Shown here: piece after piece, positions 5,838 to 53,607 of the stretch
How positions within the stretch are numbered: position 1 is the first letter of the stretch
Layout: each line of letters opens with the position of its first letter
Source: a bacterium
GTDB lineage: Bacteria; Krumholzibacteriota; Krumholzibacteriia; JACNKJ01
DNA: 64,000 nucleotides
NCBI GenBank assembly: GCA_024231955.1
Contig: JAAEPZ010000591.1
Coordinates: 98,453 to 162,452 of the forward strand
Direction: 5' to 3'
The notes under the pieces: model-generated
The model's input: the letters and a program-made list of their open reading frames with translations, nothing else
Database searches by the model: none
Told to the model about the DNA's origin: nothing
Translations under genes and position numbers: made by a program

Positions 5838-8800
5838 GTGTCATTCGGCAATATCCGTAAATCAATCATCCTGATCCTGCTCAGCGGCTTTTTCTGTCTG
5901 TTCGTTGCTACGGTCGTCAGCCTCCATTTTCTGCATGAACAGCTGATCGCCGATGCGACCAAAACCAGGTTTGAGGCGGCCGCGAGGGTCTTCTCACATG
6001 CCGACAACCAGATCAAGAATCAGCTCCAAAGACGGGCGAGCAATCTGATGGAGCTGGAGCAGCGCTTCCGCCGAGTAACCTCGTCCAGCTTTTCCGAGCA
6101 TGTCGATATGGGTCGCAAGCTGAATGCAAGCGGAGGGGATCCGGGGCGTCCGCGGCGGCGGTATCTGGAGCATATCATCCTGACCGATGCCGCCGGTGAT
6201 ACGATCATGCAGCGGGGAGGCGGATCGCCGACAACTACTTGCGCGTATCGCGAGGAGGCGAGAAGCAAAAACGAGGCGTGCTTCCACTTTCGTTGCGGTA
6301 CCGATGGCGCACTGGAGTTGTGGTATGAAGTTCCCCGTTATCACGACGGGGAGCCGGATGGTCTGCTTCAGGTGGGGAGGGATGTCTCCCCGCTTTTCCG
6401 AAGATTTCAGGAGTTGTCCGATACCGATTTTGTCCTCCTGCTCAATCCCGAACTCACCCTGGCCGGTCGCACCTCCAGCCTCTCGGGAGTTAGGGGCTCT
6501 CCTGACATGATTCAGGGCAAGCTGGTTGCCTACTCCTCACTGACGACGTGGCCTCAGGCACTGATAGAGCAACTGACGGCATCCGATCTCATTCCGGAAT
6601 TGAATATCTTCACCACTCTGTTCACCCAACACCGATTCCAGATGTACAAACTCGCCTTCGGTCTGTCCGGCGGGCGGGATGTCGGCAGCATGTACCTGCT
6701 CTGCGATATCGGCACCGAGCTGGTCGCATTCCGGGCGTATGCCTCATCAATGCTCCTGGCCTCTTTGCTCATCAGCGGATTGCTGATCTGCGTTACGTGG
6801 ATATTTGTCGGACGCTTGCAGCAAGGGTTGCAGGTGTCGGAGCGCCGCCGCCTCAGGGAGAGTACCCTGCGCAGCGTTGAGCAGGGTAACCATCTTGAGG
6901 GGATCCGGCAGCACCGGGATTACCTGCAGGATGTCATCGATGGCCTGCCCTATCCAACCGTGGTCGTCGACGGTCAATGTCGTATTCAACTCACCAACCA
7001 ACAGCAGGAGACCAGTGTTTTAGCGGAATACCGGCCAACCTCCGCATGCTGTTACGGGGTGAGACTCCTGCAGGGGGAGGAGTGTGGTTGCAAGGGGGGT
7101 GTCTGTCCGATTCCCGGGATGATCGAATCCAGACAATCCATCAGCACGAGCGGGATCCTTGAGAGAGCGGACGGGGATGTCATGAGGTATGAGATCGATT
7201 TCACGCCGCTTGAGTCCGTTTCCGGTGAGAGCGGAAACGTCATCATCACTTTCCGCGACGTCACCCAGCGCTTCACCGACGAAAAGGCCTTGATCGAGAG
7301 CGAGACACGCTACCGCAGCCTGGTGGAACTGGCACCCAACAGCATCGTCATCCTGGTCGGCGGCATTATCACTTATACGAATCCTACGGCGCTGCGTCTG
7401 CTGGATGCCGACAACGAATCCAGGCTGATCGGACGTGAATTGTTGAGTTTCATCAGCCCGGAATTCCGCTTCAACACGATGGAGCGGCTGGCAATGGATC
7501 CGACCTCCGGCGATTCCGCCGAGATGATCCGCAGTCGGATCCACACCATCGCCGGTACATATGTCGATGTGGAGATTGGGGTGAGTCAAATCATCTACCG
7601 CGGGGAGGCTGCGCGCCAGGTGATCTTCAATGATATCTCCCGGCAGATCCATTTCGAAAACGACCTGCGGGTTGCGAAGAGGAACGCCGATATCGCCAAT
7701 CAGGCCAAGAGTGAATTCCTGGCGACCATGAGCCACGAGATCCGTACGCCGATGAACGGCATTGTGGGCATGGCCAGCCTGCTCAAGGAGACCGAACTCG
7801 ATCTCGAACAACGCGAATTTGTCGAGATGCTGGGCAAATCCGCCGACTCACTACTCTTGCTTCTCAATGACATACTGGATTTTTCCAAGGTGGAAGCCGG
7901 AAAGCTGGTGCTGGAGGAGAGGGAATTCAACCTGCACCAACTCTGCCTCGACAGCTGCAAACTCATGAGTGTTCGCGCAATCGAAAAGGAGCTCAAGCTC
8001 AAGTGCCTGGTCGACACCGATTGCCCGATCAACGTAATCGGTGATGCGGGCCGCATCCGTCAGGTGATTGGCAATCTCCTCAACAACGCGATCAAATTCA
8101 CAAGTACCGGCATGATCTCCTTCGCGTTAAGTCATGGTCGGGACGCCAATGATCGTGACCTCTTCCGATTCAAAGTCAGGGACACCGGTATCGGCATCCC
8201 CTCAAGCAAGCTCACACAGATCTTCGATGAGTTCAGCCAGGTTGACAACACCACGACTCGCCGATTCGGGGGGACGGGGCTGGGGTTGGCGATCTCCAAA
8301 AAACTGGTGGGGATGATGGGGGGGGAATTACAGGTCTCAAGTCAAGAGGGGATCGGTTCCACATTCAGCTTCGAGTTGCCGCTGGAGGTGTGTGCCGGCA
8401 GATTGGTATCCGAGGCTGCACCGGACCTGATGCAAGTCGATCCCGCAAGGGGAGCCGATGCTGGGATTGCCGGTGATCGTCTCGTAGGTCTCCGCGTCCT
8501 GGTAGCTGAGGACAACCCGATCAACAGCAGGATAGTCGAACAGATGCTGTTCAGGATGGGCTGCGAGACGACCATGGTCACCGATGGCCATATGGTGCTG
8601 GAGCAACTTGCCGAAAATCGATTCGATTTGATCCTCATGGACTGCCGCATGCCCGGGCTTGATGGCTACGAAACCACCAGTCGGATCAGGGAGCTGGAGG
8701 GGGCTCAGGCGACCATTCCGATCATTGCCGTAACCGCCAATGCAATGATGGACGACCGTCAGAATTGTCTCGATATCGGGATGGATGATTACCTCAGCAA

Positions 8801-8897
8801 GCCTCTCAAGATTGATGATCTACTCGCCGCGATCGAGAGAAACGGGCTGATCGACACCCCTGTACGGGAAAAACTACGGGATGGCGCAAGTGCTTAG
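5838..8897 (+). CDS. Hybrid sensor histidine kinase (TM, PAS, HisKA, HATPase_c, receiver)
   Basis: 1019 aa, GTG start. H-box [18 protein letters not shown]. HATPase [43 protein letters not shown]...[15 protein letters not shown]. Confidence 0.85.
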
Positions 8898-9124: not shown

Positions 9125-9424
9125 ATGAGATACTGGCGAGTTCCACTAGACGCCGAAAAAGTCAAGATTCCCCGGGGCGAAATCCACCTGATTATCAATC
9201 GTTGTAAAGGCTGCGAGTTTTGCGTGGAGTTCTGTCCGCGCGATGTACTCGTCATGTCCAAGGATTACAATGTGAAGGGCTACCACTATCCCGAAGTGGC
9301 TGTCCCCGATCAATGCGTCAACTGCGATCTGTGCCAGGTGATCTGCCCCGACTTTGCAATCTTCTGTCTCCCTCAGGACGCAGAGGCCAAATCGGATGAG
9401 GAGGTGAAAGATGGAGAAGGCTGA
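9125..9424 (+). CDS. 2-oxoacid:ferredoxin oxidoreductase delta subunit (2x[4Fe-4S] ferredoxin)
   Basis: 99 aa. CKGCEFCVEFCP and CVNCDLCQVICP motifs. RBS GGAGAGGG upstream. First gene of a D-A-B-G operon. Confidence 0.85.
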   Translation: MRYWRVPLDAEKVKIPRGEIHLIINRCKGCEFCVEFCPRDVLVMSKDYNVKGYHYPEVAVPDQCVNCDLCQVICPDFAIFCLPQDAEAKSDEEVKDGEG

Positions 9425-10571
9425 TTCAAAGCGAGTTCTCACAGGCAGTCATTACCTTGACGGCGATCACGCCTGTACCGAGGGCGCGTTGGCGGCGGGA
9501 TGCAATTTCATCGCCGGCTATCCTATCACTCCGTCAACCGAGGTGGTTGAACGATACTCCCGCCGGATCCCTGCGATCGGCGGCACGTTCATTCAGATGG
9601 AGGATGAGATCGCGTCCATCACCGCAGTCCTGGGCGCCGTCTGGGGTGGTGCCAAGGCGATGACGGTGACCTCCGGCCCCGGGTTCAGTTTGATGATGGA
9701 GAACATCGGTCTGGCCGCGATGCTGGAGACCCCCTGCGTGATCGTCAACGTCATGCGCGGTGGTCCCTCCACGGGGTTGCCGACAATGGTCGGACAGGCG
9801 GATGTCATGCAGGCGCGCTGGGGATCCCATGGCGATTACGAGATCATCGCCCTTGCGCCGCAATCTCCGCAGGAGGCCTTCACGCTGATGATCGATGCCT
9901 TCAATCTGGCCGAGCGTTATCGACTGCCGGTGATGGTGATGCTCGACGAGTGCATCGGCCACATGACCGAGAAGGTCGTGATCCCCGAGGCGTGTGAAAT
10001 CGAGATTCGTCCGCGACGCATCTCCACCAAGGAGAAGGGTGAGTATTTGCCGTATGAGATCGGCGCCGACATGGTGCCCGACATGGCCCATGCCGGTGAG
10101 GGGCACCGGTACCACATCACCGGCCTGACGCACGATGAGCGGGGATATCCCGCCATGGACGCCGAGGTGCACGACAAGCTCGTACGCAGGTTGTGCGACA
10201 AGGTCCGTGAGCAGGCCGACGACATCATCATGCTCGATGAGGATGGTATGGATGGTGCGGAGATAGTGCTGATCTCCTACGGCATCACCTCCCGTGTGGC
10301 CCGCGCTTCGATTGAGGCCACCCGCGCGGCCGGGATCAAGGTCGGCAGCTTGCGTTTGCAGACCCTTTGGCCGTTCCCCGAAAAACGGATCGGCGAGTTG
10401 GCCGGCAAGGTGAAGGCGTTTGTCGTCCCCGAGGTCAATTACGGCCAGATCAGCCTTGAGGTCGAGCGGTGTGCCGCAGGTCGGGCGCAAACGCTCCTGG
10501 TTCCGCATATGGGTGGGGGCGTACACGATCCCGCCGTCATTACCCGGGCGATTGAGGAGGCTGCAAAATGA
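9411..10571 (+). CDS. 2-oxoacid:ferredoxin oxidoreductase alpha subunit (pyruvate/2-oxoglutarate family)
   Basis: 386 aa. GSHYLDGDHACTEGALAAGCNFIAGYPITPSTEV is the canonical POR/KOR alpha N-terminus. Overlaps the delta gene by 14 nt. Confidence 0.9.
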   Translation: MEKADSKRVLTGSHYLDGDHACTEGALAAGCNFIAGYPITPSTEVVERYSRRIPAIGGTFIQMEDEIASITAVLGAVWGGAKAMTVTSGPGFSLMMENIGLAAMLETPCVIVNVMRGGPSTGLPTMVGQADVMQARWGSHGDYEIIALAPQSPQEAFTLMIDAFNLAERYRLPVMVMLDECIGHMTEKVVIPEACEIEIRPRRISTKEKGEYLPYEIGADMVPDMAHAGEGHRYHITGLTHDERGYPAMDAEVHDKLVRRLCDKVREQADDIIMLDEDGMDGAEIVLISYGITSRVARASIEATRAAGIKVGSLRLQTLWPFPEKRIGELAGKVKAFVVPEVNYGQISLEVERCAAGRAQTLLVPHMGGGVHDPAVITRAIEEAAK

Positions 10572-11461
10572 GCGACGCCATGAAGCGAACCGATCAGCAT
10601 CCTCTGGACGATATTCTCCGCAGCGACCGCCTGCCGCATATCTGGTGCGCGACTTGCGGCATCGGCACCGTGGTCAAGTGTTTCGCCGAGGCGATCCAGC
10701 GAACCGAGATCCCGCTGGACGACGTTGCCGTCGTTTCGGGGATCGGTTGTACCGGTCGCGTGGCCGGCTACGTGAAATTGGATTCCTACCATACGACCCA
10801 TGGGCGGGCCATTCCCTTCGCCACGGGTTTGAAGCTGGCCAACCCCAGGCTCAAGGTCGTGGTGTTCAGCGGTGACGGCGATCTTTCCGCGATCGGTGGG
10901 AATCACCTGATCCATGCCGCCCGGCGCAATATGGACCTCACCGTCATCTGTGTGAACAACTTCATCTACGGCATGACGGGCGGGCAGGCGGCGCCGACGA
11001 CGCCGAACACCGCCAACACCTCGACGACCCCTTTCGGCGCGTTCGAACCGCCCTTCAATCTGCAGAAGCTGCTTGAAGCGTGCGGCGCCAGTTACCAGGC
11101 GCGCTGGACATCGCTGCATGTCCGGCGTCTGACCAACTCGATGACCGAAGCCCTGCTCAAACCGGGATTCAGTTTTGTCGAGGCGATCGCGCCCTGCTCC
11201 ACGCTCTACGCGCGACGCAACCGTCTGGGTAGCGGTTTCGACCTGATGAAGTTTTACCACGACAACAGCGAGATCCAGCATGGAGCCGATCCTCGTGAGG
11301 TGGATATCTCCTTCCAGGATTCAATCATCGTGGGCAAGTTCATTGATCGCGAGCGTCCGACCTGGCAGCAACTCAATGATGCACAGCACAACCGGTCCCT
11401 GGGCGAGAAGTACTTCCGCCACGACATTGTGGAGGCCGGTGGGGAGGTGAGCGATGCCTAG
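10568..11461 (+). CDS. 2-oxoacid:ferredoxin oxidoreductase beta subunit (TPP-binding)
   Basis: 297 aa. CxxC, GIGCTGR and GDGD TPP/Fe-S motifs (VVFSGDGD). ATGA overlap with the alpha gene. Confidence 0.9.
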   Translation: MSDAMKRTDQHPLDDILRSDRLPHIWCATCGIGTVVKCFAEAIQRTEIPLDDVAVVSGIGCTGRVAGYVKLDSYHTTHGRAIPFATGLKLANPRLKVVVFSGDGDLSAIGGNHLIHAARRNMDLTVICVNNFIYGMTGGQAAPTTPNTANTSTTPFGAFEPPFNLQKLLEACGASYQARWTSLHVRRLTNSMTEALLKPGFSFVEAIAPCSTLYARRNRLGSGFDLMKFYHDNSEIQHGADPREVDISFQDSIIVGKFIDRERPTWQQLNDAQHNRSLGEKYFRHDIVEAGGEVSDA

Positions 11462-11987
11462 AACCGAGATCCGGATCACCGGCTACGGCGGGCAGGGCGT
11501 TATCCTGACCGGCTACATCTTCGGCAGGGCGGCAGCGATCCATGCGGATCTGCACTCCACGATGACGCAGAGTTTCGGGCCGGAGGCGCGTGGCAGCGCC
11601 TGCAGCTCGGCTCTGGTCGTGGATGACGGCATAATCGCCTACCCCTACCTGAACGATACCGACGTACTGATCGCCCTCTCACGCGAGGGTTACGAGAAGT
11701 ACAAAGTGGAATTGAAGACGGGTGGGACGCTGATCTACGACAGTGACATGGTGCAGCCGCAGGATACGGGCGATGTACGGATGTACGGCGTCCCGGCGGC
11801 CCGCATCGCCGAGGAACTTGGCAATCGCATCGTGCAGAACATCGTTGTTGTCGGATTCACGACTGCCGTCACGGATCTGGTGGATGTCGAAGCGGTGAAA
11901 AAATCGGTCAAGGGTTCCGTGCCCAGCGCGCTGGTCGACATGAACCTGGAGGCCTTCAGAAAGGGTTATGAGTTCTATCAAAAGTAA
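11454..11987 (+). CDS. 2-oxoacid:ferredoxin oxidoreductase gamma subunit
   Basis: 177 aa. [20 protein letters not shown] is the POR/KOR gamma signature. 8-nt overlap with the beta gene. Confidence 0.9.
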
Positions 11988-14900
11988 AGGGATCTTGGTC
12001 ATCGGGGCCGGAATCACGGGAATACAGACCTCTCTTGATCTCGCGCACGCCGGGTTCCGGGTTCACCTGCTCGAACGTTCGCCCTCTATCGGCGGTCGGA
12101 TGAGTCAGTTGGACAAGGTATTCCCGACGGTCGACTGCTCTATATGAATCCTGGGTCCCTTGATGATGGATGCCGGTCGGCATCCCGGGATCGAATTGCA
12201 TACTCTCTCCGAGCTCACGGGGCTGCGCGGACGTGCCGGTGCCTTCAGAGCCACCGTCCGTAAGCATCCGCGTTATGTGGACCCGGAGCTGTGCGTTGCC
12301 TGCGGTCGTTGCACCGACGTGTGTCCGCAGGTGCGTCCGAATCCGTATGATATCGGACTGAAATCCGCGAAGGCCATCGACCGTCTGTTTCCTCAGGCCG
12401 TGCCCGCCGCCTATCACATCGATAAGGATGTCTGCCTCAACGACAACATTATGTACTGCGAGCGCTGTATCCGCGCCTGCGAGCCCGACGCGATCGATTT
12501 CGATCAACGCGAGGAGACGTTGGAGCTGGAGATCGGGTCGGTGATCGTGGCCACCGGTTTCGATGAACTCGATCCGCGCGAACTGCTCCCTTTTGGTTAC
12601 GGAAGTTCGCGCAATGTGCTGACCGGCCTGGAGTTCGAACGGCTGCTGTGCGCAACCGGACCGACCGGCGGGCACGTCGTGCGTCCCACCGATCTCAAGG
12701 TGCCGGAGCGTATCCTCTTCGTGCAGTGTGTGGGCTCTCGTGGTGAGGGGGGACGTTCCTACTGCTCCCGCTACTGTTGCATGAACTCCGTGAAGTCCGC
12801 GATGCTTGCCCACGAGCATGAACCGACTCTGAAGGGGAGCACGCTGCTCTTCACCGATATGCGCGCCGATGGGCGCGGCTACGATGCTTTCGTCGAGCGC
12901 TGCCTGGAGAGGGATCAGATCAGCACCATGCGGGGACGTCCGGCGAAGATCGAGGAGAACCCCGAGACGGGCGATCTGAGCGTCTGGGTCGAAGATTTCG
13001 AAGCCGGCAGGCCAACCCGCATCGAGGCGGGTATGGTCGTGCTCTCCTCTGCTGCCCTGCCCGCCGGTGGGACGCCCGAGCTGGGACGTATTCTGAGGAT
13101 CGAATTGGATGAAAGCGGTTTCGTCAAACGGAAGTGTCCGGACGAATCGCCGACCAAAACGACACGTCCCGGCATCTATGTGGCCGGCAGTGCCGGTTCA
13201 CCCGCAATAATCCCCGAGTGCGTGGCGCAGGGTGCCGCCGCCGCATCCGCCGCGAGTACACACGTCCTTGCCGAGCGCAACACGAAGGAGCAGGGTGAGC
13301 ATGTCGCTCCCATCGATTCCTCCGGTCCGCCGCGCATCGGCGTCTTTGTCTGCCACTGTGGAGCCAACATCGCAGGGGTGGTCAACGTTCAGGAGCTGCG
13401 CGAGGAGGCGGCGAAGCTGCCCGGCGTGGTCTATGCCGGGGATGAACATTTCGCCTGCGCCGAGATCTCCCAGAAGGTCATCGAAGAGGTGATCACCGAG
13501 CACAAGCTCAACCGTATCGTTGTCGCCGCCTGCACGCCGCGCACTCACGAACCGGTGTTCCGCGATGTCCTCAGTCGACGCGGTCTCAATCCCTTCCTGT
13601 TCGAGATGGTCAACATTCGCGATCAGTGCACCTGGGTGCATTCGGATGTGCCCGATGAGGCGCAGGCGCGCGCGCGTGATCAGATCCGTATGAGCGTGGC
13701 GCGCGCCGCGCGACTGGAGCCGCTGACTCCGATTCGGGTGGACGTCAATCGACGCGTCGTCGTGATTGGCGGCGGCATCTCCGGAATCCGCGTGGCGCTT
13801 GATCTGGCTGCGCAGGAGTTCGAGGTGACGCTGGTTGAGGTTGACGAGCAGATGGGGGGCGTGACGGCGAAGCTGGGTACGGCTGTCGGCGAACCCGGTC
13901 AAGCGCTGACCACGCTGAAGAGGCAACTGAAGCGCTCACCGGTCAGAGTGTTGCGGCAAACGGATATTGCCCGCGTTGATGGTTACGTCGGCAACTTCAT
14001 CCTAACACTCCACCCGGGCGAAGAGGAGTTGACCGCCGGTGCGATCGTGCTGGCGATCGGCGCCAAGCCGTACGATCCCACGGGACGGTTCGGTTTCGGA
14101 ACGAAGAGCAATGTCATTACTAATCTGGATCTCGAACGCCGCCTCAGGGATGAGAGTGATGTCCTCGGCGGAGGTGAGGGGGGTGTCCCGGCTACCGCGG
14201 TGATTATCCAGTGTGTCGGTTCCCGCTGCCGGGAGGAGGGGTGCAACCAGGGGTGCTCCCGCTACTGCTGCCCGTCGACGGTCAAACAGGCGCTCAAGCT
14301 GGCGGCGCTGGGTACGCGCGTTACGGTGCTCTATCGCGACATGCGCATGGTGGGGCCGGGTATGGAGGCCCTGTATCGCGAAGCCCGCGGAGCGGGTGTT
14401 CTGTTCGTGCGTGTTCCGGACGGTGGGCAAATGACGGTTGTCGGCGATACTCTGGCCGAGGCTGTCGTCGCCGATGACATGCTGCCCGACCGCGAGATTG
14501 AAGCGCCCGCCGAATTGGTGATCCTGGCCGTCGGGCTGGTTCCCGACAATGAGTTGATTTTGCGTATCAAGGAGCTCCTGAAGACTCCGGTTGGTCCCGA
14601 TGGCTTCCTGATGGAGCGTCATCCCGAACTGGGGCCGGTCGAAACTGTCGTGGACGGAGTATTCGTCTGCGGTACGGTCACCGGAGCCAAGTCGATTGCC
14701 GACTCCCTGGCCGAAGCCGGAGCTGCCGCGGGCAAGGTCAGCCGCCTGCTGTCGCGACAGGCGCTGACGCTGGAGCCGACCGTGGCCGAGGTTGATCGTC
14801 TGCTCTGCCGCGCGTGCGGCAAGTGTGTCGAGATCTGCGAGTATCAGGCCCCCTCCCTGGCTGATGACATGTTCGGTTTGCAGGCGGCGTCGATCAACAA

Positions 14901-15027
14901 GGCCTCCTGCAAGGGCTGCGGCACCTGCGTCTCCTGGTGTCCGACGGGAGCGATCAAGGCCTGCCACTTCACCGATGGTCAGATCGAGGCGATGATGGAA
15001 ACGATGCTGCAGTGGGAGAAGATGTGA
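11968..15027 (+). CDS. hdrA: Large HdrA-like flavoprotein (HdrL-type, two tandem HdrA-like halves) containing an in-frame UGA (selenocysteine) at 12145-12147
   Basis: ATG at 11968 in frame with track ORF 12160-15027. Translation [20 protein letters not shown]...[23 protein letters not shown]. The TGA sits where the second Cys of the conserved HdrA DCSxC motif belongs. Second half has the HdrA N-domain ([15 protein letters not shown]...CTPRTHEP) plus an FAD site ([10 protein letters not shown]) but no CxxU/CxxC motif. Ferredoxin CxxCxxCxxxCP motifs present. Confidence 0.8.
12168..12185 (+). promoter_or_regulatory. Putative bacterial SECIS hairpin 20 nt downstream of the UGA in hdrL
   Basis: GGAUGCC-GGUC-GGCAUCC: perfect 7-bp stem with a GGUC apical loop (G and U in the loop as in characterised bacterial SECIS). 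Identical element at the same spacing in the second hdrA. Confidence 0.5.
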
Positions 15028-15494
15028 ATAACAGCGATTTCGAACCGCGGATAGTGGTGTTTGCCTGCAACTGGTGTTCGTACGCCGGAGCCGATACGGC
15101 TGGCGTCAGCAGGTTGCAGCACTCGCCCAAATTCCGGGTCATCCGGACCATGTGTTCGGGGCGTGTCAATTCGGTGCATATCCTCAAGGCCTTCGAGATG
15201 GGGGCCGACGGAGTCCTGGTGTCCGGATGTCACATCGGCGATTGTCACTACATGTTCGGCAATCACTGGGCGATCAAGCAGTTCGATGTCACGCGCGATC
15301 TGCTCAACATGCTTGGCCTGGAGGAGGCGCGCACGCGGCTGGAATGGGTGTCTGCGGCGGAGGGTCCCAAGTGGGCCTCCCTGATCGATGAATTCGTGAC
15401 CACGATTCAGCAGCTCGGTCCCAGCCCGCTGCGGGGGGAATCCACCGAGGAGTCCTTCGGCGACCGTGAGATCGACATGGAGGTGAACGGGTAA
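15024..15494 (+). CDS. mvhD: MvhD/FlpD-family [2Fe-2S] protein (methyl-viologen-reducing hydrogenase delta-subunit-like)
   Basis: [19 protein letters not shown]...IRTMCSGRV...GADGVLVSGCHIGDCHY...LEWVSAAEG is the MvhD signature. Start is probably the GTG overlapping the hdrL stop (GTGA). The longer ATG 14937 start in the track would overlap hdrL by 90 nt. Confidence 0.7.
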   Translation: MNNSDFEPRIVVFACNWCSYAGADTAGVSRLQHSPKFRVIRTMCSGRVNSVHILKAFEMGADGVLVSGCHIGDCHYMFGNHWAIKQFDVTRDLLNMLGLEEARTRLEWVSAAEGPKWASLIDEFVTTIQQLGPSPLRGESTEESFGDREIDMEVNG

Positions 15495-16603
15495 TGGCGA
15501 ATACCGAATTGAAAGGGGCCATGCGCTGTCTGGACTGCGGTAAATGCACATCCGCCTGTCCCGTGGCGCGCTTCAATCTTGTCCTCTCTCCCCGGAGATT
15601 GATCCGGCAGCTCGGTTGCGGAGTGGATGCGGGTTGCGGCGACGCGCTCTGGTCCTGTCTGACCTGCGGCCGCTGTGATGCGGTTTGTCCGCAAGAGGTG
15701 CCGATCACCGCCGCCATGCCGCTGCTGCGCGCCGATGTGCGTGCGGAGGGGGGCAAGCCGCCCTTCACACGCTGCGGAGCGATGGAGAGCGTGGCGACGA
15801 TTCAGTCGCAGGGGCCCGTTCCCCAGAACCGGCTGGAGTGGCTCACCGACGACCTGCGCACCGACCCGGAGAGCAAAACGCTGCTCTTCATAGGCTGCAC
15901 CCCCTACTTCGACAAGTTCTTCGTCGAGCACGATGTCGATACCCTGGCGGCGGTGAAGGGGGCGATCCGGATTCTCAATGCAATGGGCATAGAGCCCGCC
16001 GTGCTGGCCGATGAGCGCTGTTGCGGACACGATGCACTCTGGTCCGGGGACGAAAAGACCTTCAGCGATCTGGCTCATCTGAATCTGGAGATGTTCGCCA
16101 AGGCCGCACCCGATCTGATCGTGACGGTCTGCCCGGAATGCTCACTGACCCTCGGGCGCACCTACCCGGAACGTTTTGAAGCGCCCGGCTGTCCGGTCAA
16201 ACACATCACCGAGGTGGTCTCGGAGCATTACGAGGAGCTGGAGTTCACCGCACGCGAGCTGACGGTGACTTTCCAGGATCCATGTCGATTGGGGCGTCAT
16301 CAGGATCTGTATGTCGAGCCGCGCGAGGGGCTCGAGATGATTCCCGACCTCGAACTGAGAGAGATGCCGCGGAATAGGGCGGCAGCCGTTTGTTGCGCGG
16401 GCTCATGGCTCACCTGTAATCAGGCGAGCAAGAAGATTCAATCCGATCGCCTCGCGGAGGCAGAGGCGACCGGGGCGGAACTGATGGTGACGGCCTGTCC
16501 CAAGTGCCTGATCCATTTCCGCTGCTCTCAATCCGGCGTCGGGGAGGAGCCCGGGATCGAGATCCGGGACTTCGCAGACCTGCTCGCCGAGTCACTGCAA
16601 TAG
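15494..16603 (+). CDS. HdrD-like Fe-S oxidoreductase (HdrC-type 2x[4Fe-4S] domain fused to HdrB-type CCG domains)
   Basis: 369 aa. N-terminal [12 protein letters not shown] and [12 protein letters not shown] motifs. C-terminal CCG motifs (ERCCGHD, CCAGSW). 1-nt TAATG overlap with mvhD. Confidence 0.7.
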
Positions 16604-16625
16604 AGGAGGAAAGGAGGTGAACCGT

Positions 16626-19055
16626 ATGCCGAAAGCTCTACCCCGTATAGGAGTCTTCGTTTGCGATTGCGGCTCGAACATAGCCGGAACCGTGGACACC
16701 CAGGCGGTAACCGATTACGCCACCACTCTGCCCGGAGTCGTCGCGGTAGTGAGGAACAAGTACACGTGCGCCGAACCTGGACAGCAGGAGATCAAGAAGG
16801 CGATCGTGGAGGAGAAGCTGGAGCGTGTCGTCGTGGCGTCCTGTACGCCGCGGATGCATGAGCCGACTTTCCGTGGATGTGTCTGGGATGTCGGTTTGAA
16901 CCCCTATCTCATGGAGATGGCGAATCTTCGTGAACACTGTTCCTGGGTGCATGGAGACGACAAGGAGGGCGCCACCGCCAAGGCCAAGGATCTGGTTGCC
17001 AGCGCAGTCGCGCGTGCAGCCAAACTCGAGGCTCAGGAGGAGGCTGTCTTCCCGGTCACCAAAGCGGCGCTGGTGATCGGTGGAGGCATTACCGGGATTC
17101 AGGCCGCCATGGATCTGGCGGACGCCGGTCATCAGGTCTATCTGGTCGAGAAGGAGGCGAGTATTGGCGGGATCATGGCCCAGCTTGACAAGACCTATCC
17201 CACCATGGACTGCTCGATATGAATTCTCGGACCAAAGATGATGGATGCCGGTCGGCATCCCCTGATCAAATTGATGAGTTACAGCGAGATTGAGGACGTC
17301 AATGGTTACGTCGGCAATTTCAAGGTTACGGTTCGCAAGAAGGCGCGCTACGTGGACGAAACCGTCTGCAACAGTTGCGGTGAGTGCGAGAAGGTGTGTC
17401 CCGCAATCCATCCGGACGAGTTCCAGATGGGGTTGGCGACACGGAAGGCTGTGCACCTGCCCTTCCCGCAGGCCGTGCCGTCGGCCTACCTGATCAACAT
17501 GGAGAATTGCCTGGGCACGAATCCCATCGCCTGCGGCAAGTGCGCCGAGGTCTGCGAGAAGAATGCCATCAACTATGATATGCAGGATGAGATCGTCGTC
17601 CTGGATATAGGTGCGATCGTGGTGGCGACGGGGATCGATGTCTACGATCCCACGCAGCAGGATGAATACGGCTATACGCGATTCCAGAACGTGATTACGA
17701 GTATGGAGTTCGAGCGGCTTATCTGTGCTGGAGGGCCGACGGTCGGCCATCTGGTGCGGCCGGGTGATCACACCACGCCGCTGCGGATCGGTTTCATCCA
17801 GTGTGTCGGTTCCCGTTCGCTGCGCGATGGGGCGGGTTTCTGCAGCAACATCTGCTGCATGAACACGGTCAAGGATACGCTGCTGATTCGCGATCATTAT
17901 CCCGACGCCGAGTGCTCGGTCTTCTATATCGACATCCGCGCGTTCGGTAAGGGATTCGAGGATCTTTACGACAAGAGTCGCGAGGCCGGCGTCAAGTACA
18001 TCCGCGGTATTCCGGGTGAGATTACGGAGGACCCCGCCACCGGCAATCTGCGCATGGTGGTGGAGAACACGACTACGCGGTCGATCGAGGAGCACGAGTT
18101 CGACATGATTGTGCTGTCGGTCGGTGTGCGGCCCCGAGCGGACGGCGGCGATATCCGTCGACATTTGACGCTGTCGCAAACCTCCGATGGTTTTCTGATG
18201 GAGGCCCATCCCAAGCTCAAGCCGGTGGACGCGCCGACGCGCGGCGTGTATATCGCGGGTTGCGCCGAAGCACCGAAGGACGTCAAGGAGAGCGTGACCC
18301 AGGCCAGCGCCGCTGCGGCGAGGGCGGGCGTATTGCTCAATGCGGGGAAGGTGACCGTGGAGGCGATCACCTGTACCATCGACAATGATCTCTGTCACGG
18401 TTGCGGAGCCTGCGAAAAGGTCTGCCCCTATGGAGCGATCACCGTGGATAAGGGGGCAAAAACGGCAGCGGTGGTTGAAGCCGCCTGTGCCGGATGCGGC
18501 ACCTGTGGTTCCGCTTGCCGATTCGATGCGATCACGATGCGGCATTTTACGGATGCGCAGATCGTGGCCCAGGTCGACGCCCTGCTGGCGGAGCGGCAGA
18601 GCGGGAAGGTTATCGTCTTCGCCTGCAACTGGTGCTCCTATGCAGGGGGCGATACCGCAGGCACGAGCCGCATGCTTTATCCCGCGAGTAATCGTTTGAT
18701 CCGTACGATGTGCAGCGGGCGAATCTCCGAGGAGTTCGTGCTGCGCGCGTTCCGCAAAGGGGCGCCGATAGTGCTGGTTTCCGGTTGCCACTTCGCGGAT
18801 TGCCACTACATCGACGCAAACCGTCAAACAGTCAAACGTGTTTATCGCTTGTGGAAGCAGTTGGAGAAGCTGGGGATTCGCACCGAACGGCTGCAGTTGG
18901 AATGGATCAGCGCGGCCGAGGGTCCCAAATTCCAGAAGACGATGCGCGAGATGGAGGAGTTGCGTGCCCAGGTGACCCAGGAGGAGATCGATCACACCGT
19001 GAAGGTGTTGACCGAGCAATTCGAGAAGCGTCGCCTGAAAAAAGTGAGGAGCTGA
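16626..19055 (+). CDS. hdrA: HdrA flavoprotein with C-terminal fused MvhD domain, containing in-frame UGA (selenocysteine) at 17220-17222
   Basis: Track ORFs 16617-17222 and 17238-19055 share a frame and are separated only by TGA. Translation ...[30 protein letters not shown]. Canonical HdrA N-domain ([22 protein letters not shown]), FAD site ([17 protein letters not shown]), ferredoxin motifs. C-terminal MvhD block ([18 protein letters not shown]...[11 protein letters not shown]). AAGGAGG RBS 8 nt before ATG 16626; GTG 16617 also possible. Confidence 0.8.
17243..17260 (+). promoter_or_regulatory. Putative bacterial SECIS hairpin 20 nt downstream of the UGA in hdrA-mvhD
   Basis: Same GGAUGCC-GGUC-GGCAUCC hairpin as at 12168-12185, at the same 20-nt distance from the UGA. 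Confidence 0.5.
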
Positions 19056-19059
19056 CGGC

Positions 19060-19224
19060 ATGGAAAAGATGTGGGTGTTCAAGTGTCAGCGCTGCGGTTG
19101 TGATTATCAGGAGGTCTACGACCCCAAGGCGGCGCTGCGGGAGAGATCCTGCCCGCAGTGTCGCTCCAACAGCGTGCGCCCGTTGCACGATGTCGATTCG
19201 ACGAAAAGACAGGCGAAGGGATAA
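19060..19224 (+). CDS. Small zinc-ribbon protein (54 aa, two CxxC pairs) between hdrA and hdrC; absent from the ORF track (<60 aa)
   Basis: ATG 5 nt after the hdrA stop. Translation MEKMWVFKCQRCGCDYQEVYDPKAALRERSCPQCRSNSVRPLHDVDSTKRQAKG. Stop TAA at 19222-19224, 6 nt before hdrC. Confidence 0.45.
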   Translation: MEKMWVFKCQRCGCDYQEVYDPKAALRERSCPQCRSNSVRPLHDVDSTKRQAKG

Positions 19225-19230
19225 GCGACG

Positions 19231-19731
19231 ATGAAGGAGAAAAAACGGGTGCGGATCAGTCATGATTTCCGAGAGCAGTTGGGGCTTGTGCTCGAGGGGG
19301 ATGGCGTCAATTACTGTTACCAGTGCGGTGCCTGCGTGGGGGACTGCCCCACCGCCCGCTTCAGTGAGGATTTCAACCCGCGGACCATCATGCAGTCCGT
19401 TCTCTATGGCCTGAAAGAGGAGATCGCCTCGGATACGCTGCCTGTCTGGATGTGCTCCAATTGCTTCACCTGTTTTGACCGCTGCCCGCAAGAGGTCAAG
19501 CCGATTGAGGTGATCATCGCCCTCAAGAATCTGATGGCGAGTGAGGGGATCGTTCCGAAAGGTGTGGAGGCGGCTGCTGCAGGTATCCTGAAAACGGGGC
19601 GCAGCGCGATAGTGTCCAATACCACCGTACGTCGTCGTGAGGAGTTGGGACTGCCGCCCCTGGAGGAGCTGGATGCCGGGGAATTACGTACCCTTCTGGA
19701 TGCGGACGCAAATGGGGAGGGGGAAAAATGA
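19231..19731 (+). CDS. hdrC: Heterodisulfide reductase subunit C (2x[4Fe-4S])
   Basis: 166 aa. CYQCGACVGDCP and CSNCFTCFDRCP motifs with the HdrC-type helical C-terminal part. Confidence 0.85.
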   Translation: MKEKKRVRISHDFREQLGLVLEGDGVNYCYQCGACVGDCPTARFSEDFNPRTIMQSVLYGLKEEIASDTLPVWMCSNCFTCFDRCPQEVKPIEVIIALKNLMASEGIVPKGVEAAAAGILKTGRSAIVSNTTVRRREELGLPPLEELDAGELRTLLDADANGEGEK

Positions 19732-20591
19732 AGCTGGCCTTCTTTCCCGGATGCATGATTCAGGTGAGATTCCCGCAGATGGAGGCGGCGGTGCGGAAAA
19801 CCGCGCCGGCGCTCGATGTCGAGTTGATAGACCTGCCTGGACTTGGCTGTTGTCCTGACCCCGTCTTCTTTAAATCGCTGCACAAACTTGATTGGTTGAC
19901 CCTTGCCGCCCGCAACCTGGCGATCGCCGAGCAGGCGGGACTCGATTTCGTCACGATCTGCAGCGGATGCACCGAGACGCTGGCGGAGGCCTCCCATCTG
20001 CTCAATGATGATGCTGATCTGCGCGGACAGGTAAACGAACGTCTGCACAAAATCGGCATGGAGTACAACGGTGGAGTGGCGACGCGTCATCTGATCACCG
20101 TGTTGCGGGACAATCTGGGGTTCGAACGGCTGACTGCTTCGGTGACTCGTCCTCTGACCGGTTTGCGTGTTGGAGTGCACTACGGTTGTCATCTACTAAA
20201 GCCGCGTAAGATCATGCAAGTCGATGATCCGGATCACCCCACGGTGTTCGAGGATATGCTGCGGGCCATCGGCGCCGAGCCTGTCGATCATGTGGAGCGG
20301 GTGATCTGCTGCGGCAAATCGTGCCGCGATTGCAACTTGCCTGAGGAGATGACATTGACGGTATTGAGATCGCTCAAGACGGCAGAGGTCGACATGATGG
20401 GGGTGATTTGCCCATCGTGTTTCGATTCCTTCGATATCGGGCAGATCAAGATCTCCCGCAAACACAAGCTGGGCTACACAATCCCGCCCGTCTACTACTT
20501 CCAGTTGCTTGCGTTGGCTCAAGGGCTGACGCCGGCAGAGGTCGGATTGGACAAGCATAAGATCAAGTCGGAGAGACTGCTGACTTTGTAG
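19728..20591 (+). CDS. hdrB: Heterodisulfide reductase subunit B (two CCG domains)
   Basis: 287 aa. N-terminus MKLAFFPGCMI...GLGCCPDP and CCGKSCRDCN are CCG-domain signatures. ATGA overlap with hdrC. Confidence 0.85.
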   Translation: MKLAFFPGCMIQVRFPQMEAAVRKTAPALDVELIDLPGLGCCPDPVFFKSLHKLDWLTLAARNLAIAEQAGLDFVTICSGCTETLAEASHLLNDDADLRGQVNERLHKIGMEYNGGVATRHLITVLRDNLGFERLTASVTRPLTGLRVGVHYGCHLLKPRKIMQVDDPDHPTVFEDMLRAIGAEPVDHVERVICCGKSCRDCNLPEEMTLTVLRSLKTAEVDMMGVICPSCFDSFDIGQIKISRKHKLGYTIPPVYYFQLLALAQGLTPAEVGLDKHKIKSERLLTL

Positions 20592-20632: not shown

Positions 20633-21247
20633 TTAACGGTGCCGTTGCCAGTCCAGCTCCGTAACGTAGTGTTCCATCTCCTGCCACAGAGTCTTCATAT
20701 CGCAATGCATCACGATCAGATCCTGCTTCTTGCCGTCCAGGTCGCGCACGTAATCCTTGAGGACCGCCTCCTCTTTGAACCCCAGCCCTTTGACGATACT
20801 ATAGGCAGCCATCTGCGGACGCATGAGCTGTACAACGATCTCCTCGACCTTCTTCCGCATAGCCAGCATGAAGAGCTCTCTTGCTATCAACTTGCCGAGA
20901 CCCTTACGCCTGAACTTCCTGCCTATGATCATCCGCATCTCGGCCACATGCCTCTTCCAGTGATCGCTTTGCAATTCGAGGACACCGGTTGCGATAACCT
21001 GATTGCCAACGAGAACGATGAGGCGATTGAGATTGTCGCTGCCTTCGATGGCCCGAATTCTATTTTCAATTTCCGATCGTTTCGTGACATCAAAACGTAA
21101 ATAATTCCTATCCGCTTTCGACAGGGTGGAAAAAAAGGAGTATGTGGCATCGATGTCGGTGAGCTCGATTGGTCGAATTACAACATCCGCTCCAATCCTG
21201 AGCGAAGTCATATTCTTCAGTGAATCTGCAAGTACTGGTTGTGACAT
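20633..21247 (-). CDS. GNAT-family N-acetyltransferase
   Basis: 204 aa. Acetyl-CoA binding block QVIATGVLE...RKFRRKGLGKLIARELFMLA (R/Q-x-x-G-x-G/A). Confidence 0.8.
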   Translation of the reverse strand: MSQPVLADSLKNMTSLRIGADVVIRPIELTDIDATYSFFSTLSKADRNYLRFDVTKRSEIENRIRAIEGSDNLNRLIVLVGNQVIATGVLELQSDHWKRHVAEMRMIIGRKFRRKGLGKLIARELFMLAMRKKVEEIVVQLMRPQMAAYSIVKGLGFKEEAVLKDYVRDLDGKKQDLIVMHCDMKTLWQEMEHYVTELDWQRHR

Positions 21248-27484: not shown

Positions 27485-29038
27485 TCAGGATGTCTCGTAG
27501 ATGACGTCCAGGATCGTCCCGTCAACCCATTTCACAATACCCACGATCTTCTCGCCGACCCTGGGCTTTGCGGGGGGGCCTCCGACAATGCCCTCGATTT
27601 CCCGCTTCAGTTCGTCGATGGATCGCACCGGCAGACCCGCTGCAGTGGCGGACTCGATCAGATCCTGCCGCAGCGGATTGATGGCAATGCCCCGCTCGGT
27701 AACCACCACATCGATCAATTCGCCGGGGCCGCAGAGTGTGGTGACCTCATCGACGATCACCGGAATCCGGTTGCGGAACGCCGGGATCGGCAGAATCGTC
27801 ACGTTGGCGAATAGACAATTCTGCCAACCGCCGATGCCGTGCAGCATCTTGCCGTCACTGTGGGTGACCACGTTGGCGTTGAAATCGACATCGACCTCGG
27901 TGGCGCCGAGCACGACGAAATCCACCAGGGAGGCGAAGTTGCCCTTGCCGTGCCAGTTGTAGCTGGTGAAAGGGCTGGTGGCCAGATGGTTGGGGTTCTC
28001 CCGCATGGAGCGCACCCCCTCAAGGTCGAAGGTCTGACCGTCGAGGAGATAATCCATCATCCCCTCCTCGAGCATCTGGACCATGTACTTCGTCGAACCG
28101 CCCCGCATGAAGCGTGCGCGGATCTCAGCCTCCCGCATCATCTCCTTGAGGAAGATGGCCGTGGCCAGGGCGGTCCCGCCGGCGCCGGCCTGCAGCGAGA
28201 ACCCATCGCGGAAGTATGATGTCGACCGGATGAACTTCGCCGTCAGTTCGGCGATCAGCAGACGGTCGGGACTCTTGGTGATCCGCGTCGTGCCGCTGAC
28301 GATCTTGTCCGGGTCTCCGACCTGCTCCAGTTCGACGACGTAATCCACGTTGTTCCCCTGGATCTGCCAGGGGACGCAGGGGAAGGGCACGAGGTTGTCG
28401 GTAACCACAATCACCTTGTCCGCATAGAGCGAATCGACCAGGCCGAAATTGAGGCTGCCGCAGGCGCTGGGTCCGCGATCCCCCGTGGCGTTGCCGAAAG
28501 CGTCTGCGGTGGGGGCGGCCAGCACCGTGATGTCGATGTGCACCTCGCCGTCCTGCACGGCCTGCCAGCGACCGCCATGACTGCGCAGCACGGCCACGCC
28601 ATCCATGTCGCCGTGACTGGCGTATGCCCCGAGAGGACCGTTGAGGCTCCCCTCGATCCGTTTCAGGACGCCGTTGTCCATGTGTTCGATCATGGGCTTG
28701 TGACAGGGGAACGCGGCGCTGGGAAACCAGACCAGATCCTTCACCCCCAACTCGGCCGCGGCCTGGAAGACCGCATTCATCACCAGATCCCCGTTACGGA
28801 AGTGGTGATGATTGCTGATGGTCATGCCGCTCTTCAGACCGGCTTTGCGCAGCGCCTCCTTCAAAGTGGCGACCCGCTTGTCGCCGTCGGCCGGGAAGTC
28901 CCCGCACTGGGCGACAGAGGGCGCCGTCTTGCGCCCCTGCGGCTGGAACTGCCCGACACCCTTGTACGGTGTCTGGGGAACGGCATTGACCTCTGTGGGA
29001 ACCATCCGACCCGCGGCATTCTTCACCATCTTGCTCAT
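27485..29038 (-). CDS. citF: Citrate lyase alpha subunit (citrate CoA-transferase)
   Basis: 517 aa. Colinear with CitF family (GMTISNHHHFRNGDLVMN..., ...NPNHLATSPFTSYNWHGKG..., ...GIAINPLRQDL...). Confidence 0.85.
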   Translation of the reverse strand: MSKMVKNAAGRMVPTEVNAVPQTPYKGVGQFQPQGRKTAPSVAQCGDFPADGDKRVATLKEALRKAGLKSGMTISNHHHFRNGDLVMNAVFQAAAELGVKDLVWFPSAAFPCHKPMIEHMDNGVLKRIEGSLNGPLGAYASHGDMDGVAVLRSHGGRWQAVQDGEVHIDITVLAAPTADAFGNATGDRGPSACGSLNFGLVDSLYADKVIVVTDNLVPFPCVPWQIQGNNVDYVVELEQVGDPDKIVSGTTRITKSPDRLLIAELTAKFIRSTSYFRDGFSLQAGAGGTALATAIFLKEMMREAEIRARFMRGGSTKYMVQMLEEGMMDYLLDGQTFDLEGVRSMRENPNHLATSPFTSYNWHGKGNFASLVDFVVLGATEVDVDFNANVVTHSDGKMLHGIGGWQNCLFANVTILPIPAFRNRIPVIVDEVTTLCGPGELIDVVVTERGIAINPLRQDLIESATAAGLPVRSIDELKREIEGIVGGPPAKPRVGEKIVGIVKWVDGTILDVIYETS

Positions 29039-30324: not shown

Positions 30325-30398
30325 TTTGCGTCCGTCGAGGCAATGGACATCGACTCCCGACTCCGGAAACCTCGCCTCCGTACGATCCGCCGCTTCGC

Positions 30399-31316: not shown

Positions 31317-31615
31317 GTGGAATCTCCGAGCTTGGGTGTTCCGCATCAATCCGGGGAGTCGCCAAACGGGTATATGGTCGTCCGGATGAAGGTCTGGAGG
31401 AATGTATCGATAATCGGGGCAGGTGGATAGTCCCGACTGGTCATCTCTGTGGGAAATCCCCGCAAACCGATGAGGGGCGGGGGTTCTCGCGATCCGGCTT
31501 GGTCGGATACCTGACGGGTTTGCGGATCCGTGGATCCTGCACCTGACGAATCGGCAAACAGAAGAGCCGAGTTCCAAAGGGAACCCGGCTCATCGATTCG
31601 GACATCCGGTCGGAC

Positions 31616-53594: not shown

Positions 53595-53607
53595 AGGAGA
53601 GATCTGC

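Follow-up and report, generated by a model that had tools for sequence, protein, structure and literature searches.

A widespread bacterial gene cluster that links a 2-oxoacid:ferredoxin oxidoreductase to predicted selenoprotein HdrA modules and probably encodes an energy-coupling complex

Electron bifurcation by HdrA, the flavoprotein of the heterodisulfide reductase (Hdr) systems, is well understood in methanogens only, and the partners and substrates proposed for bacterial HdrA proteins are mostly guesses. In the characterised Mvh-Hdr and Fdh-Hdr complexes, MvhD is the adaptor that passes electrons from the donor module to the HdrA flavin, and in the complexes of methanogens the low-potential branch leads to ferredoxin or formylmethanofuran dehydrogenase. 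That the partners on the HdrA core can be exchanged is already established (Mvh, Fdh, F420, Flx, MetFV, Bam). Among bacteria, FlxABCD-HdrABC of Desulfovibrio and MetFV-HdrABC-MvhD of Moorella combine an HdrA/MvhD core with such an exchangeable partner, and the class II benzoyl-CoA reductase BamB-I is a further system of this kind. Here we describe a cluster of 11 consecutive genes on the + strand, at positions 9125-20591 of a DNA window from a bacterium of an uncultured lineage (the whole stretch of 64,000 nucleotides that was analysed, from contig JAAEPZ010000591.1 of assembly GCA_024231955.1), which has the same kind of core but in which the candidate partner is a 2-oxoacid:ferredoxin oxidoreductase (OFOR); no Flx, MetF/V, BamB or BamGHI was found among the window open reading frames (ORFs) scanned. 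All of its parts belong to known families. We propose, with moderate confidence, that the cluster encodes a soluble OFOR-Hdr complex in which the OFOR would take the ferredoxin-level branch of bifurcating flavoproteins of the HdrA type. The gene order is OFOR δαβγ, tandem HdrA, MvhD, HdrD-like, HdrA-MvhD, Zn-ribbon, HdrC, HdrB:

9125-9424, + strand: porD, OFOR delta subunit, 99 amino acids (aa); Pfam Fer4_7, two CxxCxxCxxxCP motifs for two [4Fe-4S] clusters
9411-10571, + strand: porA, OFOR alpha subunit, 386 aa; Pfam POR_N (1.1e-73) and PFOR_II (1.7e-20)
10568-11461, + strand: porB, OFOR beta subunit, thiamine pyrophosphate-binding, 297 aa; Pfam TPP_enzyme_C
11454-11987, + strand: porG, OFOR gamma subunit, 177 aa; Pfam POR (2.6e-36)
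11968-15027, + strand: tandem (fused) HdrA, predicted selenoprotein, 1019 aa; alignment to 5odc_A, Pfam, NCBIfam and motifs
15024-15494, + strand: mvhD, free, 156 aa; Pfam FlpD (5.1e-49)
15494-16603, + strand: hdrD-like, soluble, 369 aa; two Pfam CCG domains, Fer4_8, HdrC-like N-terminus with two [4Fe-4S] clusters
16617-19055, + strand: hdrA-mvhD fusion, predicted selenoprotein of the HdrA2 type, 812 aa; all HdrA domains
19060-19224, + strand: Zn-ribbon protein, 54 aa, CxxC...CxxC; conserved motif, weak Pfam Zn_ribbon_8
19231-19731, + strand: hdrC-like, 166 aa, two [4Fe-4S] clusters; two CxxCxxCxxxC motifs, TIGR03290 below threshold
19728-20591, + strand: hdrB-like, 287 aa; two Pfam CCG domains with complete motifs at residues 9-81 and 154-231

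With MvhAGD-HdrABC (5ODC), the locus shares the HdrA architecture (FAD domain, N-terminal iron-sulphur (FeS) domain, inserted and C-terminal ferredoxin domains, and Cys or selenocysteine (Sec) at position 197), the MvhD adaptor, an HdrC with two [4Fe-4S] clusters and an HdrB with two CCG motifs. It differs in its bacterial host, in the absence of the MvhAG hydrogenase and in having HdrB and HdrC proteins that score below the CoB-CoM cut-offs, and it adds a tandem HdrA, an HdrD-like protein and an OFOR in what is most likely the same operon. HdrA2B2C2 of Methanosarcina acetivorans, a reduced-ferredoxin-dependent disulfide reductase that also bifurcates, likewise has an HdrA fused to MvhD (PMC5296606). 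However, this archetype uses F420H2 and CoM-S-S-CoB, neither of which can be assumed in the host of the window, and it has no OFOR, HdrD-like or tandem HdrA partner. A conceptual analogue is found in the Hdr-Fmd/Fwd supercomplexes of methanogens, in which a CO2-converting enzyme of the -500 mV class is placed on the low-potential branch of HdrA (PMC13518236, PMC13580544). There, the partner enzyme is a different one and the linker is a polyferredoxin, whereas here the candidate linker would be the OFOR delta subunit.

The 11 genes overlap or are separated by 13 nt at most (junctions from porD to hdrB of -14, -4, -8, -20, -4, -1, +13, +4, +6 and -4 nt), and a GGAG-type ribosome-binding site precedes most of the starts. 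Between positions 8000 and 22000, terminator-like matches were at chance level, with 12 weak matches against 9.1 expected in shuffled sequences, and a promoter scan of the cluster region likewise stayed at background. None of the 11 products has a clear transmembrane segment. Given starts that overlap or are tightly spaced, and terminator-like matches that are no commoner than in shuffles, the eleven genes most likely form a single operon, one predicted to encode a soluble, selenium-dependent redox complex. The original prediction, made from the window sequence without database searches, had described this run of 11 same-strand genes with coupled starts from the OFOR delta subunit to hdrB, and every gene lies where it had been placed. 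Its names agree with the Pfam and NCBIfam assignments for every product apart from 'hdrL', its label for the tandem HdrA.

The products of the first four genes have the domains, the motifs and the D-A-B-G order of a four-subunit OFOR of the KorDABG/OorDABC type. The alpha subunit carries the YPITP motif ('GYPITPSTE' in the translation) and passes the NCBIfam model PRK08659, '2-oxoacid:acceptor oxidoreductase subunit alpha', with 561 bits against a cut-off of 411; its closest solved chains are 1yd7 and the 2-oxoglutarate enzymes 8ys5 (2-oxoglutarate synthase) and 6n2n. For the remaining subunits, the nearest NCBIfam models all stay below cut-off. These are OGOR_delta and OorD for delta, models of the 2-oxoglutarate/2-oxoacid ferredoxin oxidoreductase beta subunit for beta, and PRK08537 for gamma (185 bits, cut-off 235).

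Alignment of the tandem HdrA with HdrA of 5ODC reveals two fused and unequal units. Residues 10-378 align with HdrA 147-510, covering the FAD domain and the inserted ferredoxin domain, and within this stretch Sec60 aligns with Cys197. Residues 454-624 align with HdrA 3-173, comprising the N-terminal FeS domain and the first part of a second FAD domain, and residues 834-1013 with HdrA 472-649, the C-terminal domain with two [4Fe-4S] clusters. Both halves contain a GxGxxG motif and the CVGSR...CC cluster motif, and the second half has neither the Cys197 motif nor the inserted ferredoxin domain. Chadwick et al. described fused or tandem HdrA proteins of anaerobic methanotrophs (ANME) in which the N-terminal domain and Cys197 lie in complementary halves, and read them as a built-in heterodimer (PMC9012536). 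The tandem HdrA of the window has the same complementarity with the halves reversed, the Sec197 half coming first; the ANME clusters have FdhAB-like partners, whereas an OFOR is found here. HdrL of Desulfobacterium autotrophicum HRM2 is also a large, Sec-containing, HdrA-related protein whose gene is followed by mvhD; its definition describes an HdrA/glutamate-synthase-type fusion carrying an NADH site (Strittmatter et al. 2009, PMC2702500). In contrast, the window protein consists of two fused HdrA units, and neither Pfam nor the 5ODC alignment indicated a GltD-type or Fer4_20 domain in it. Since this domain is absent, the protein is not an HdrL in the original D. autotrophicum sense, and the label 'hdrL' was imprecise for what is a tandem HdrA lacking a GltD-type NAD(P)H domain. 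The NCBI entry MCP4548177.1 ('MAG: bacterium', 954 aa) is 100% identical to the part of the tandem HdrA that follows its in-frame UGA, and covers that ORF only. This ORF is matched by 7824 proteins at E <=1e-20, the best 120 of which, where scored, are at least about 49% identical to it over nearly the full length.

As had been claimed, MvhD occurs both free and fused to HdrA, with FlpD domain matches in the two proteins (residues 665-781 in the fusion). The HdrA-MvhD protein passes the NCBIfam model hetero_SS_HdrA2 (NF040770; 1147.5 bits, cut-off 1100) over model positions 1-776 of 777, and it displays the domain set of a bifurcating HdrA: GxGxxG, the N-terminal FeS domain, CVGSR...CC, both ferredoxin domains and Sec197. 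The HdrD-like protein has no hydrophobic segment and its nearest NCBIfam model, TfrB, is below cut-off. Complete CX(n)CCX(n)CXXC motifs are found in both CCG proteins, at residues 135-216 and 264-338 in the HdrD-like protein and at the positions given above in HdrB. HdrC reached 108.5 bits with TIGR03290 (cut-off 160) and HdrB 284.6 bits with TIGR03288 (cut-off 345.15), and both thus remain short of equivalog-level identity with subunits C and B of the CoB-CoM heterodisulfide reductase. The match of the 54-aa protein to Pfam Zn_ribbon_8 is likewise weak and below cut-off (E = 0.0012). An ORF of 43-64 aa with the motif ERxCPxCRSNS[IV]R, however, is found directly 3' of HdrA-MvhD in 27 of 46 related loci, and this recurrence at the same place indicates that the Zn-ribbon ORF is a real gene.

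Each of the two HdrA-type genes contains one in-frame TGA, which lies within the motif DCSI-U-ILGP and is followed by a hairpin resembling a selenocysteine insertion sequence (SECIS):

12145-12147, + strand: in-frame UGA of the tandem HdrA (codon counts, hairpin, 5ODC alignment)
12168-12185, + strand: SECIS-like hairpin GGAUGCC-GGUC-GGCAUCC, 20 nt past this UGA
17220-17222, + strand: in-frame UGA of HdrA-MvhD (codon counts, hairpin)
17243-17260, + strand: SECIS-like hairpin GGAUGCC-GGUC-GGCAUCC, 20 nt past this UGA

At the corresponding position in 66 related loci, TGA was counted 78 times and a Cys codon (TGC or TGT) 12 times. The six inner pairs of the consensus hairpin GAUGYC-GGUC-GRCAUC form in 66 of 72 distinct Sec-type sequences and in none of the 12 Cys-type sequences. 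The loop is GGUC in 66 of the 72, and one pair covaries among them (C:G 38, U:A 25, U:G 9). Folding of the single sequences past the UGAs gave unexceptional z-scores of -0.46 and -0.87, and Rfam at gathering thresholds had no match within the window; the SECIS assignment is therefore based on the comparative counts. ARAGORN detected no tRNA gene, and hence no tRNA-Sec, within the window. An alternative reading of the two UGAs as true stops, which would make both genes split genes, was rejected on the codon counts, the covarying hairpin and the alignment with Cys197. Thus, the signal expected of bacterial selenoproteins is present, and the comparative evidence indicates that both UGAs are decoded as selenocysteine. 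The earlier marking of both HdrA-type genes as Sec-containing is borne out by the homologous codons and the conserved hairpin. Sec197 has been reported at the matching position of Methanococcus maripaludis HdrA (PMC13518236), and the locus described here offers a clean case of Sec/Cys197 use in bacterial HdrA with a covarying SECIS.

To place the cluster in a wider context, one genome per GTDB species was scanned with the HdrD-like protein alone. This yielded the 66 loci, onto which the window proteins were mapped by tblastn; counts of upstream OFORs were restricted to the 42 loci whose sequence extends 7 kb or more upstream of hdrD. A same-strand OFOR in D-A-B-G order, with an alpha subunit of at least 50% identity, lies upstream in 33 of these 42 loci, and some OFOR in 38. 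Directly downstream of the hdrD-like gene, HdrA-MvhD was found in 47 of 57 loci. Complete clusters are spread over at least eight bacterial phyla. According to the record titles, the hosts include Planctomycetota (Phycisphaerae, Planctomycetales), Gemmatimonadota, Zixibacteria, KSB1, Ignavibacteriales, Acidobacteriota (Thermoanaerobaculia, Ca. Sulfomarinibacter), Chloroflexota (Dehalococcoidia, Anaerolineae, Caldilineae) and Desulfobacterota (Desulfobacteraceae, Desulfosarcina, Desulfobulbus, Desulfarculales). The closest relative is a locus (L001) in a metagenome-assembled genome (MAG) labelled Fibrobacteraceae, with 59-83% identity. Pairwise identities of OFOR-alpha and of the HdrD-like protein correlate over 38 loci (Mantel r = 0.58, p = 0.001). 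Moreover, distant OFORs of 26-37% identity adjoin related hdrD/hdrA/mvhD clusters, as in the divergently transcribed NaphS2-type loci and a locus of Anoxymicrobiaceae, so that the linkage involves OFORs of more than one lineage. Judged by these gene neighbourhoods, the OFOR-Hdr linkage is beyond chance, and its recurrence in at least eight phyla suggests that the arrangement probably encodes a widespread energy-coupling complex. The original prediction had reduced ferredoxin from 2-oxoacid oxidation feeding the Hdr proteins. Its functional coupling of OFOR and Hdr has strong comparative support, because the arrangement is kept across many phyla and OFORs of other lineages adjoin related Hdr clusters; the direction of electron flow is something we infer.

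In the literature, the only mention of an OFOR-Hdr linkage that we found concerns Syntrophobacter fumaroxidans Sfum_0012-0018, called 'HdrAL/POR', an Hdr-type cluster with a pyruvate:ferredoxin oxidoreductase that is merely named, without analysis, in PMC5947623. Our likening of the two is by name only; the Desulfobacterota loci in our set belong to a GltD-type variant without HdrCB. The linkage goes unmentioned in Poudel 2018, in a 2024 preprint on HdrA evolution and in the Sulfomarinibacter paper, and we found no account of the conservation across phyla, of three variants in which a GltD module is swapped for tandem HdrA plus HdrCB, or of a conserved Zn-ribbon subunit. A single, sharply defined and very widespread cluster ties HdrA modules to a specific enzyme of carbon metabolism.

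All-against-all clustering of ORFs from the 66 loci was used to search for other conserved flanking genes. It recovered a MarR-type regulator in eight loci and a GNAT protein in six loci and the window as the only recurrent families; thiol carriers, hydrogenase and formate dehydrogenase were not recurrent. The MarR-family regulator, which has a Cys-rich C-terminal tail, is encoded just 5' of porD (L005, L011, L013, L030, L053, L054, L059 and L061; for example L054:3854-4486), at the place where the window has a hybrid histidine kinase.

Comparison of the loci reveals a common core of OFOR, MvhD, HdrD-like and HdrA-MvhD (plus Zn-ribbon) in three variants. In type I, the variant of the window (21 loci), a tandem HdrA is encoded between OFOR and MvhD, and HdrCB is present in 18 of the 21, the other three contigs being truncated. 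In type II (15 loci, Chloroflexota and Desulfobacterota), this place is taken by a GltD-HdrA-like fusion of 1119-1182 aa, in which a GltD-type NAD(P)H module (Fer4_20 + Pyr_redox_2) is joined to HdrA-like parts, and HdrCB is absent. These proteins, for example those of L038 and L031, fit the original definition of HdrL. Type III (4 loci, Thermoanaerobaculia and the unclassified uncultured bacterium L017) has a GltD-ferredoxin-MvhD fusion of 803 aa, again without HdrCB. All 19 loci of types II and III (19 of 19), none of which has HdrCB, place a GltD module between OFOR and MvhD; L038, L031 and L053 are examples, the last with the module fused directly to MvhD. As type III fuses GltD to the donor adaptor MvhD, the gene preceding MvhD appears to encode an electron-input module. 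This suggests that the exchangeable input module of the window cluster is tandem HdrA plus HdrCB, set on a core of OFOR, MvhD, HdrD-like and HdrA-MvhD, and a thiol/disulfide couple at HdrB appears to replace NAD(P)H/NAD(P)+ in type I. The module swap would also point to the subunit that brings in the third redox couple. The earlier description of 'two Hdr-type modules' is fair in itself, although the split implied by gene order differs from the one that the relatives suggest.

Several loci show further departures. In L038 (Desulfobacteraceae), MvhD and the HdrD-like protein are fused into one protein of 527 aa (L038:9533-11116), which supports a physical partnership of the two, and a radical-SAM/lysine-aminomutase-like gene lies 3' of HdrA-MvhD (L038:13904-14977). 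Two type I loci, L009 (Ca. Sulfomarinibacter) and L061 (an unclassified MAG), carry extra large HdrA-type genes, one of them containing GltD, so that both kinds of input module can coexist in one locus. Four loci of Anaerolineae and Caldilineae (L025, L032, L034, L040) have an insert of about 2 kb between hdrD-like and hdrA-mvhD; in L025 (11085-13107) it was read by eye as a radical-SAM-like ORF (Cx3Cx2C) and a polytopic membrane ORF, guessed to be UbiA-like. In L043, L047 (strain NaphS2), L052, L055 and L057, an OFOR of 30-37% identity is transcribed divergently from hdrD-hdrA(Sec)-GltD-...-mvhD-hdrA-mvhD, an order that we take to resemble BamD-E-F. In aromatic-degrading Desulfobacterota, this arrangement may represent a separate, though related, system.

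In the OFOR-Hdr complex that we propose, the KorDABG/OorDABC-type OFOR would work the 2-oxoacid / acyl-CoA + CO2 couple at about -500 mV and would be wired to the ferredoxin-type domains of the HdrA flavoproteins, either through its delta subunit with two [4Fe-4S] clusters or through free ferredoxin. Both ferredoxin and the low-potential output of HdrA lie at about -500 mV, which would place the OFOR on the ferredoxin-level branch. The HdrD-like protein would provide the CCG-type thiol/disulfide site of the conserved core, and the protein encoded just before the free MvhD would act as the exchangeable electron-input module: a GltD-type NAD(P)H oxidoreductase in many relatives, and here a fused, asymmetric HdrA pseudo-dimer arriving with HdrCB. 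A second thiol/disulfide couple, at HdrB, could stand in for NAD(P)H/NAD(P)+. The net outcome would be flavin-based confurcation or bifurcation, with the -500 mV oxoacid couple set against thiol/disulfide couples at the HdrD-like protein and HdrB. In the oxidative direction, 2-oxoacid + CoA + disulfide(s) would yield acyl-CoA + CO2 + thiols. That the proteins form a physical complex, where the OFOR sits in the electron path, which way the electrons run and which substrates are used are points that we infer from the genes. If the OFOR is wired directly to Hdr, uncultured sediment anaerobes would have a new way of budgeting ferredoxin-level electrons from the 2-oxoacids of amino-acid and TCA metabolism.

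Several points weigh against this proposal. The OFOR substrate is not assignable from sequence, since alpha alone passes a model, and a generic one, and all specific models, of which those for 2-oxoglutarate are nearest, lie below cut-off. Nor can a disulfide substrate be assigned, as HdrB and HdrC fall under the CoB-CoM equivalog cut-offs, and CCG domains are shared by enzymes other than disulfide reductases (the NCBIfam neighbours TfrB, LdhH and GlpC). Gene order does not tell which HdrA partners which CCG protein. No thiol carrier gene of the DsrC, TusA or lipoate-binding type recurs near the cluster in related loci. Finally, the S. fumaroxidans 'HdrAL/POR' proteins went undetected in proteomes under the conditions tested (PMC5947623).

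The original prediction had also stated that the window encodes no hydrogenase or formate dehydrogenase partner, and Pfam scans of its larger remaining ORFs indeed found neither; MetF/V, AOR and DsrC were missing from these ORFs as well. A mid-potential donor module (MvhAG, FdhAB, an F420 site or Flx) was likewise neither found among the scanned window ORFs nor recurrent in the related loci. A bolder and decidedly tentative idea is that the cluster represents an uncharacterised class of flavin-based electron-bifurcating supercomplex in which the OFOR is hard-wired to HdrA without free ferredoxin and a second thiol/disulfide couple serves as the mid-potential partner. If this is true, the partner would be a thiol couple and not H2, formate, F420H2 or NAD(P)H. 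A hard-wired complex could then allow, for example, a thiol-driven reductive carboxylation of acyl-CoA or, alternatively, a 2-oxoacid-driven sorting of redox equivalents between two thiol pools, and horizontal transfer would have carried it into anaerobic sediment bacteria from many phyla.

The strongest competitor to the oxidative reading is the same complex run in reverse, which we regard as a serious though minority possibility. Here, HdrA bifurcation would produce electrons of very low potential and hand them straight to the OFOR, driving it as a 2-oxoacid synthase (acyl-CoA + CO2 -> pyruvate or 2-oxoglutarate) by analogy with the CO2-fixing Hdr-Fmd/Fwd supercomplexes of methanogens; disulfide reduction would be the exergonic branch, and the electron donor would be a thiol couple in this locus and NAD(P)H in its relatives. 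The OFOR couple is known to lie at about -500 mV and fits the low-potential output of HdrA, and the closest solved or annotated relatives of alpha include the '2-oxoglutarate synthase' 8ys5 and 6n2n. In the same vein, GltD is fused in L053 to MvhD, the adaptor that feeds donors to the HdrA flavin, and hard-wired Hdr-Fwd/Fmd assemblies do exist (PMC13518236, PMC13580544). The window further encodes citrate lyase, aconitase, SdhCAB and malic enzyme; yet the citrate lyase is of the CitDEF type and not an ATP-citrate lyase, and these TCA genes are not kept beside the cluster in other loci. OFORs are reversible and their direction cannot be read from sequence, and many of the host lineages, inferred from record titles, are presumed heterotrophs. 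If the reversed direction is true, the cluster would represent a new bifurcation-driven route for fixing CO2 into 2-oxoacids.

Unlikely, in our view, is a simple ferredoxin:disulfide system without bifurcation, in which the OFOR reduces free ferredoxin, while HdrA-MvhD/HdrBC on the one hand and HdrL/MvhD/HdrD-like on the other carry out an energetically uncoupled, downhill reduction of a disulfide. HdrA2B2C2 alone does catalyse ferredoxin-dependent heterodisulfide reduction (PMC5296606), and no mid-potential donor module (hydrogenase, formate dehydrogenase, Flx or GltD) was found among the window ORFs scanned. However, standard potentials imply that such a system would waste about 350 mV per electron. 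It would also leave unexplained why tandem HdrA is paired with HdrCB and GltD with its absence, and why two MvhD adaptors and three HdrA-type FAD domains are retained.

Class II benzoyl-CoA reductases comprise an HdrA-like BamE, an MvhD-like BamF and an HdrD-like BamD, and receive ferredoxin from a 2-oxoglutarate:ferredoxin oxidoreductase. By analogy, HdrL, MvhD and the HdrD-like protein could form a BamE/F/D-like module that serves a low-potential reductase whose gene lies elsewhere (a class II benzoyl-CoA reductase, for instance, or some other enzyme of dearomatisation or dehalogenation), with the OFOR doing no more than regenerate ferredoxin. The hdrD-hdrA-mvhD order with a divergent OFOR in the NaphS2 and Desulfobacteraceae loci speaks for this option. 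We nevertheless consider it very unlikely, given that no gene of the AOR family (BamB) or resembling NuoEFG (BamGHI) turned up in Pfam scans of the larger window ORFs, that neither family recurs around the 66 loci, and that many of the lineages carrying the cluster are not known to degrade aromatics.

Least credible is that the OFOR and Hdr genes are mere neighbours that function independently: either gene set could work by itself, yet mere adjacency is strongly disfavoured by the same-strand arrangement in 33 of 42 independently fetched loci from at least eight phyla, by the overlapping stop and start codons of porG and hdrL and by the co-variation of OFOR-alpha with the HdrD-like protein.

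The remainder of the window contains the following features:

5838-8897, + strand: hybrid histidine kinase, upstream flank, with a 227-nt gap before porD
20633-21247, - strand: GNAT acetyltransferase (Pfam), convergent with the operon
27485-29038, - strand: citrate lyase alpha subunit, CitF
29035-30324, - strand: CitD-CitE fusion
30399-31577, - strand: EamA transporter
31616-33421, - strand: aconitase-family protein
35922-39251, + strand: B12-binding, MeaB-like GTPase and acyl-CoA mutase fusion, IcmF-like, 1109 aa
50560-52908, + strand: malic enzyme-PTA fusion, MaeB type
52935-53594, 53539-55404 and 55423-56172, + strand: SdhC-, SdhA- and SdhB-like genes

Six other loci (L003, L007, L011, L036, L061 and L065), whose hosts are Phycisphaerae, Planctomycetales, Gemmatimonadota, Zixibacteria, Acidobacteriota and an unclassified MAG, encode a homologue of the GNAT protein (30-40% identity) no more than about 2.4 kb from an end of the cluster. 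The GNAT protein may be a loosely associated accessory or regulatory partner, using, for example, the acyl-CoA product. The genes from CitF to the aconitase-family protein form a same-strand block related to citrate cleavage and the TCA cycle (27485-33421, - strand), about 7 kb from the OFOR-Hdr operon.

Long antisense ORFs run within the cluster, for example one of 814 aa opposite hdrA (16638-19082, - strand). We treated them as shadow ORFs in GC-rich coding sequence and not as genes; the clustering of their counterparts across loci reflects nothing but overlap with conserved genes, and for the one checked (915-2804, + strand, 629 aa), no family that clusters with it has a Pfam match. Two large ORFs on the - strand (24015-26438, 807 aa; 59054-60697, 547 aa) gave no Pfam match at E <=0.001. 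A neighbouring ORF of 831 aa at 21523-24018 matches HATPase_c and FG-GAP only. Two adjacent paralogous ORFs of 563 aa with Chlamydia-PMP-type repeats (45091-48550, - strand) and an S8 subtilase of 1090 aa with a C-terminal FlgD-Ig-like domain (60705-63977) have the appearance of secreted or surface proteins.

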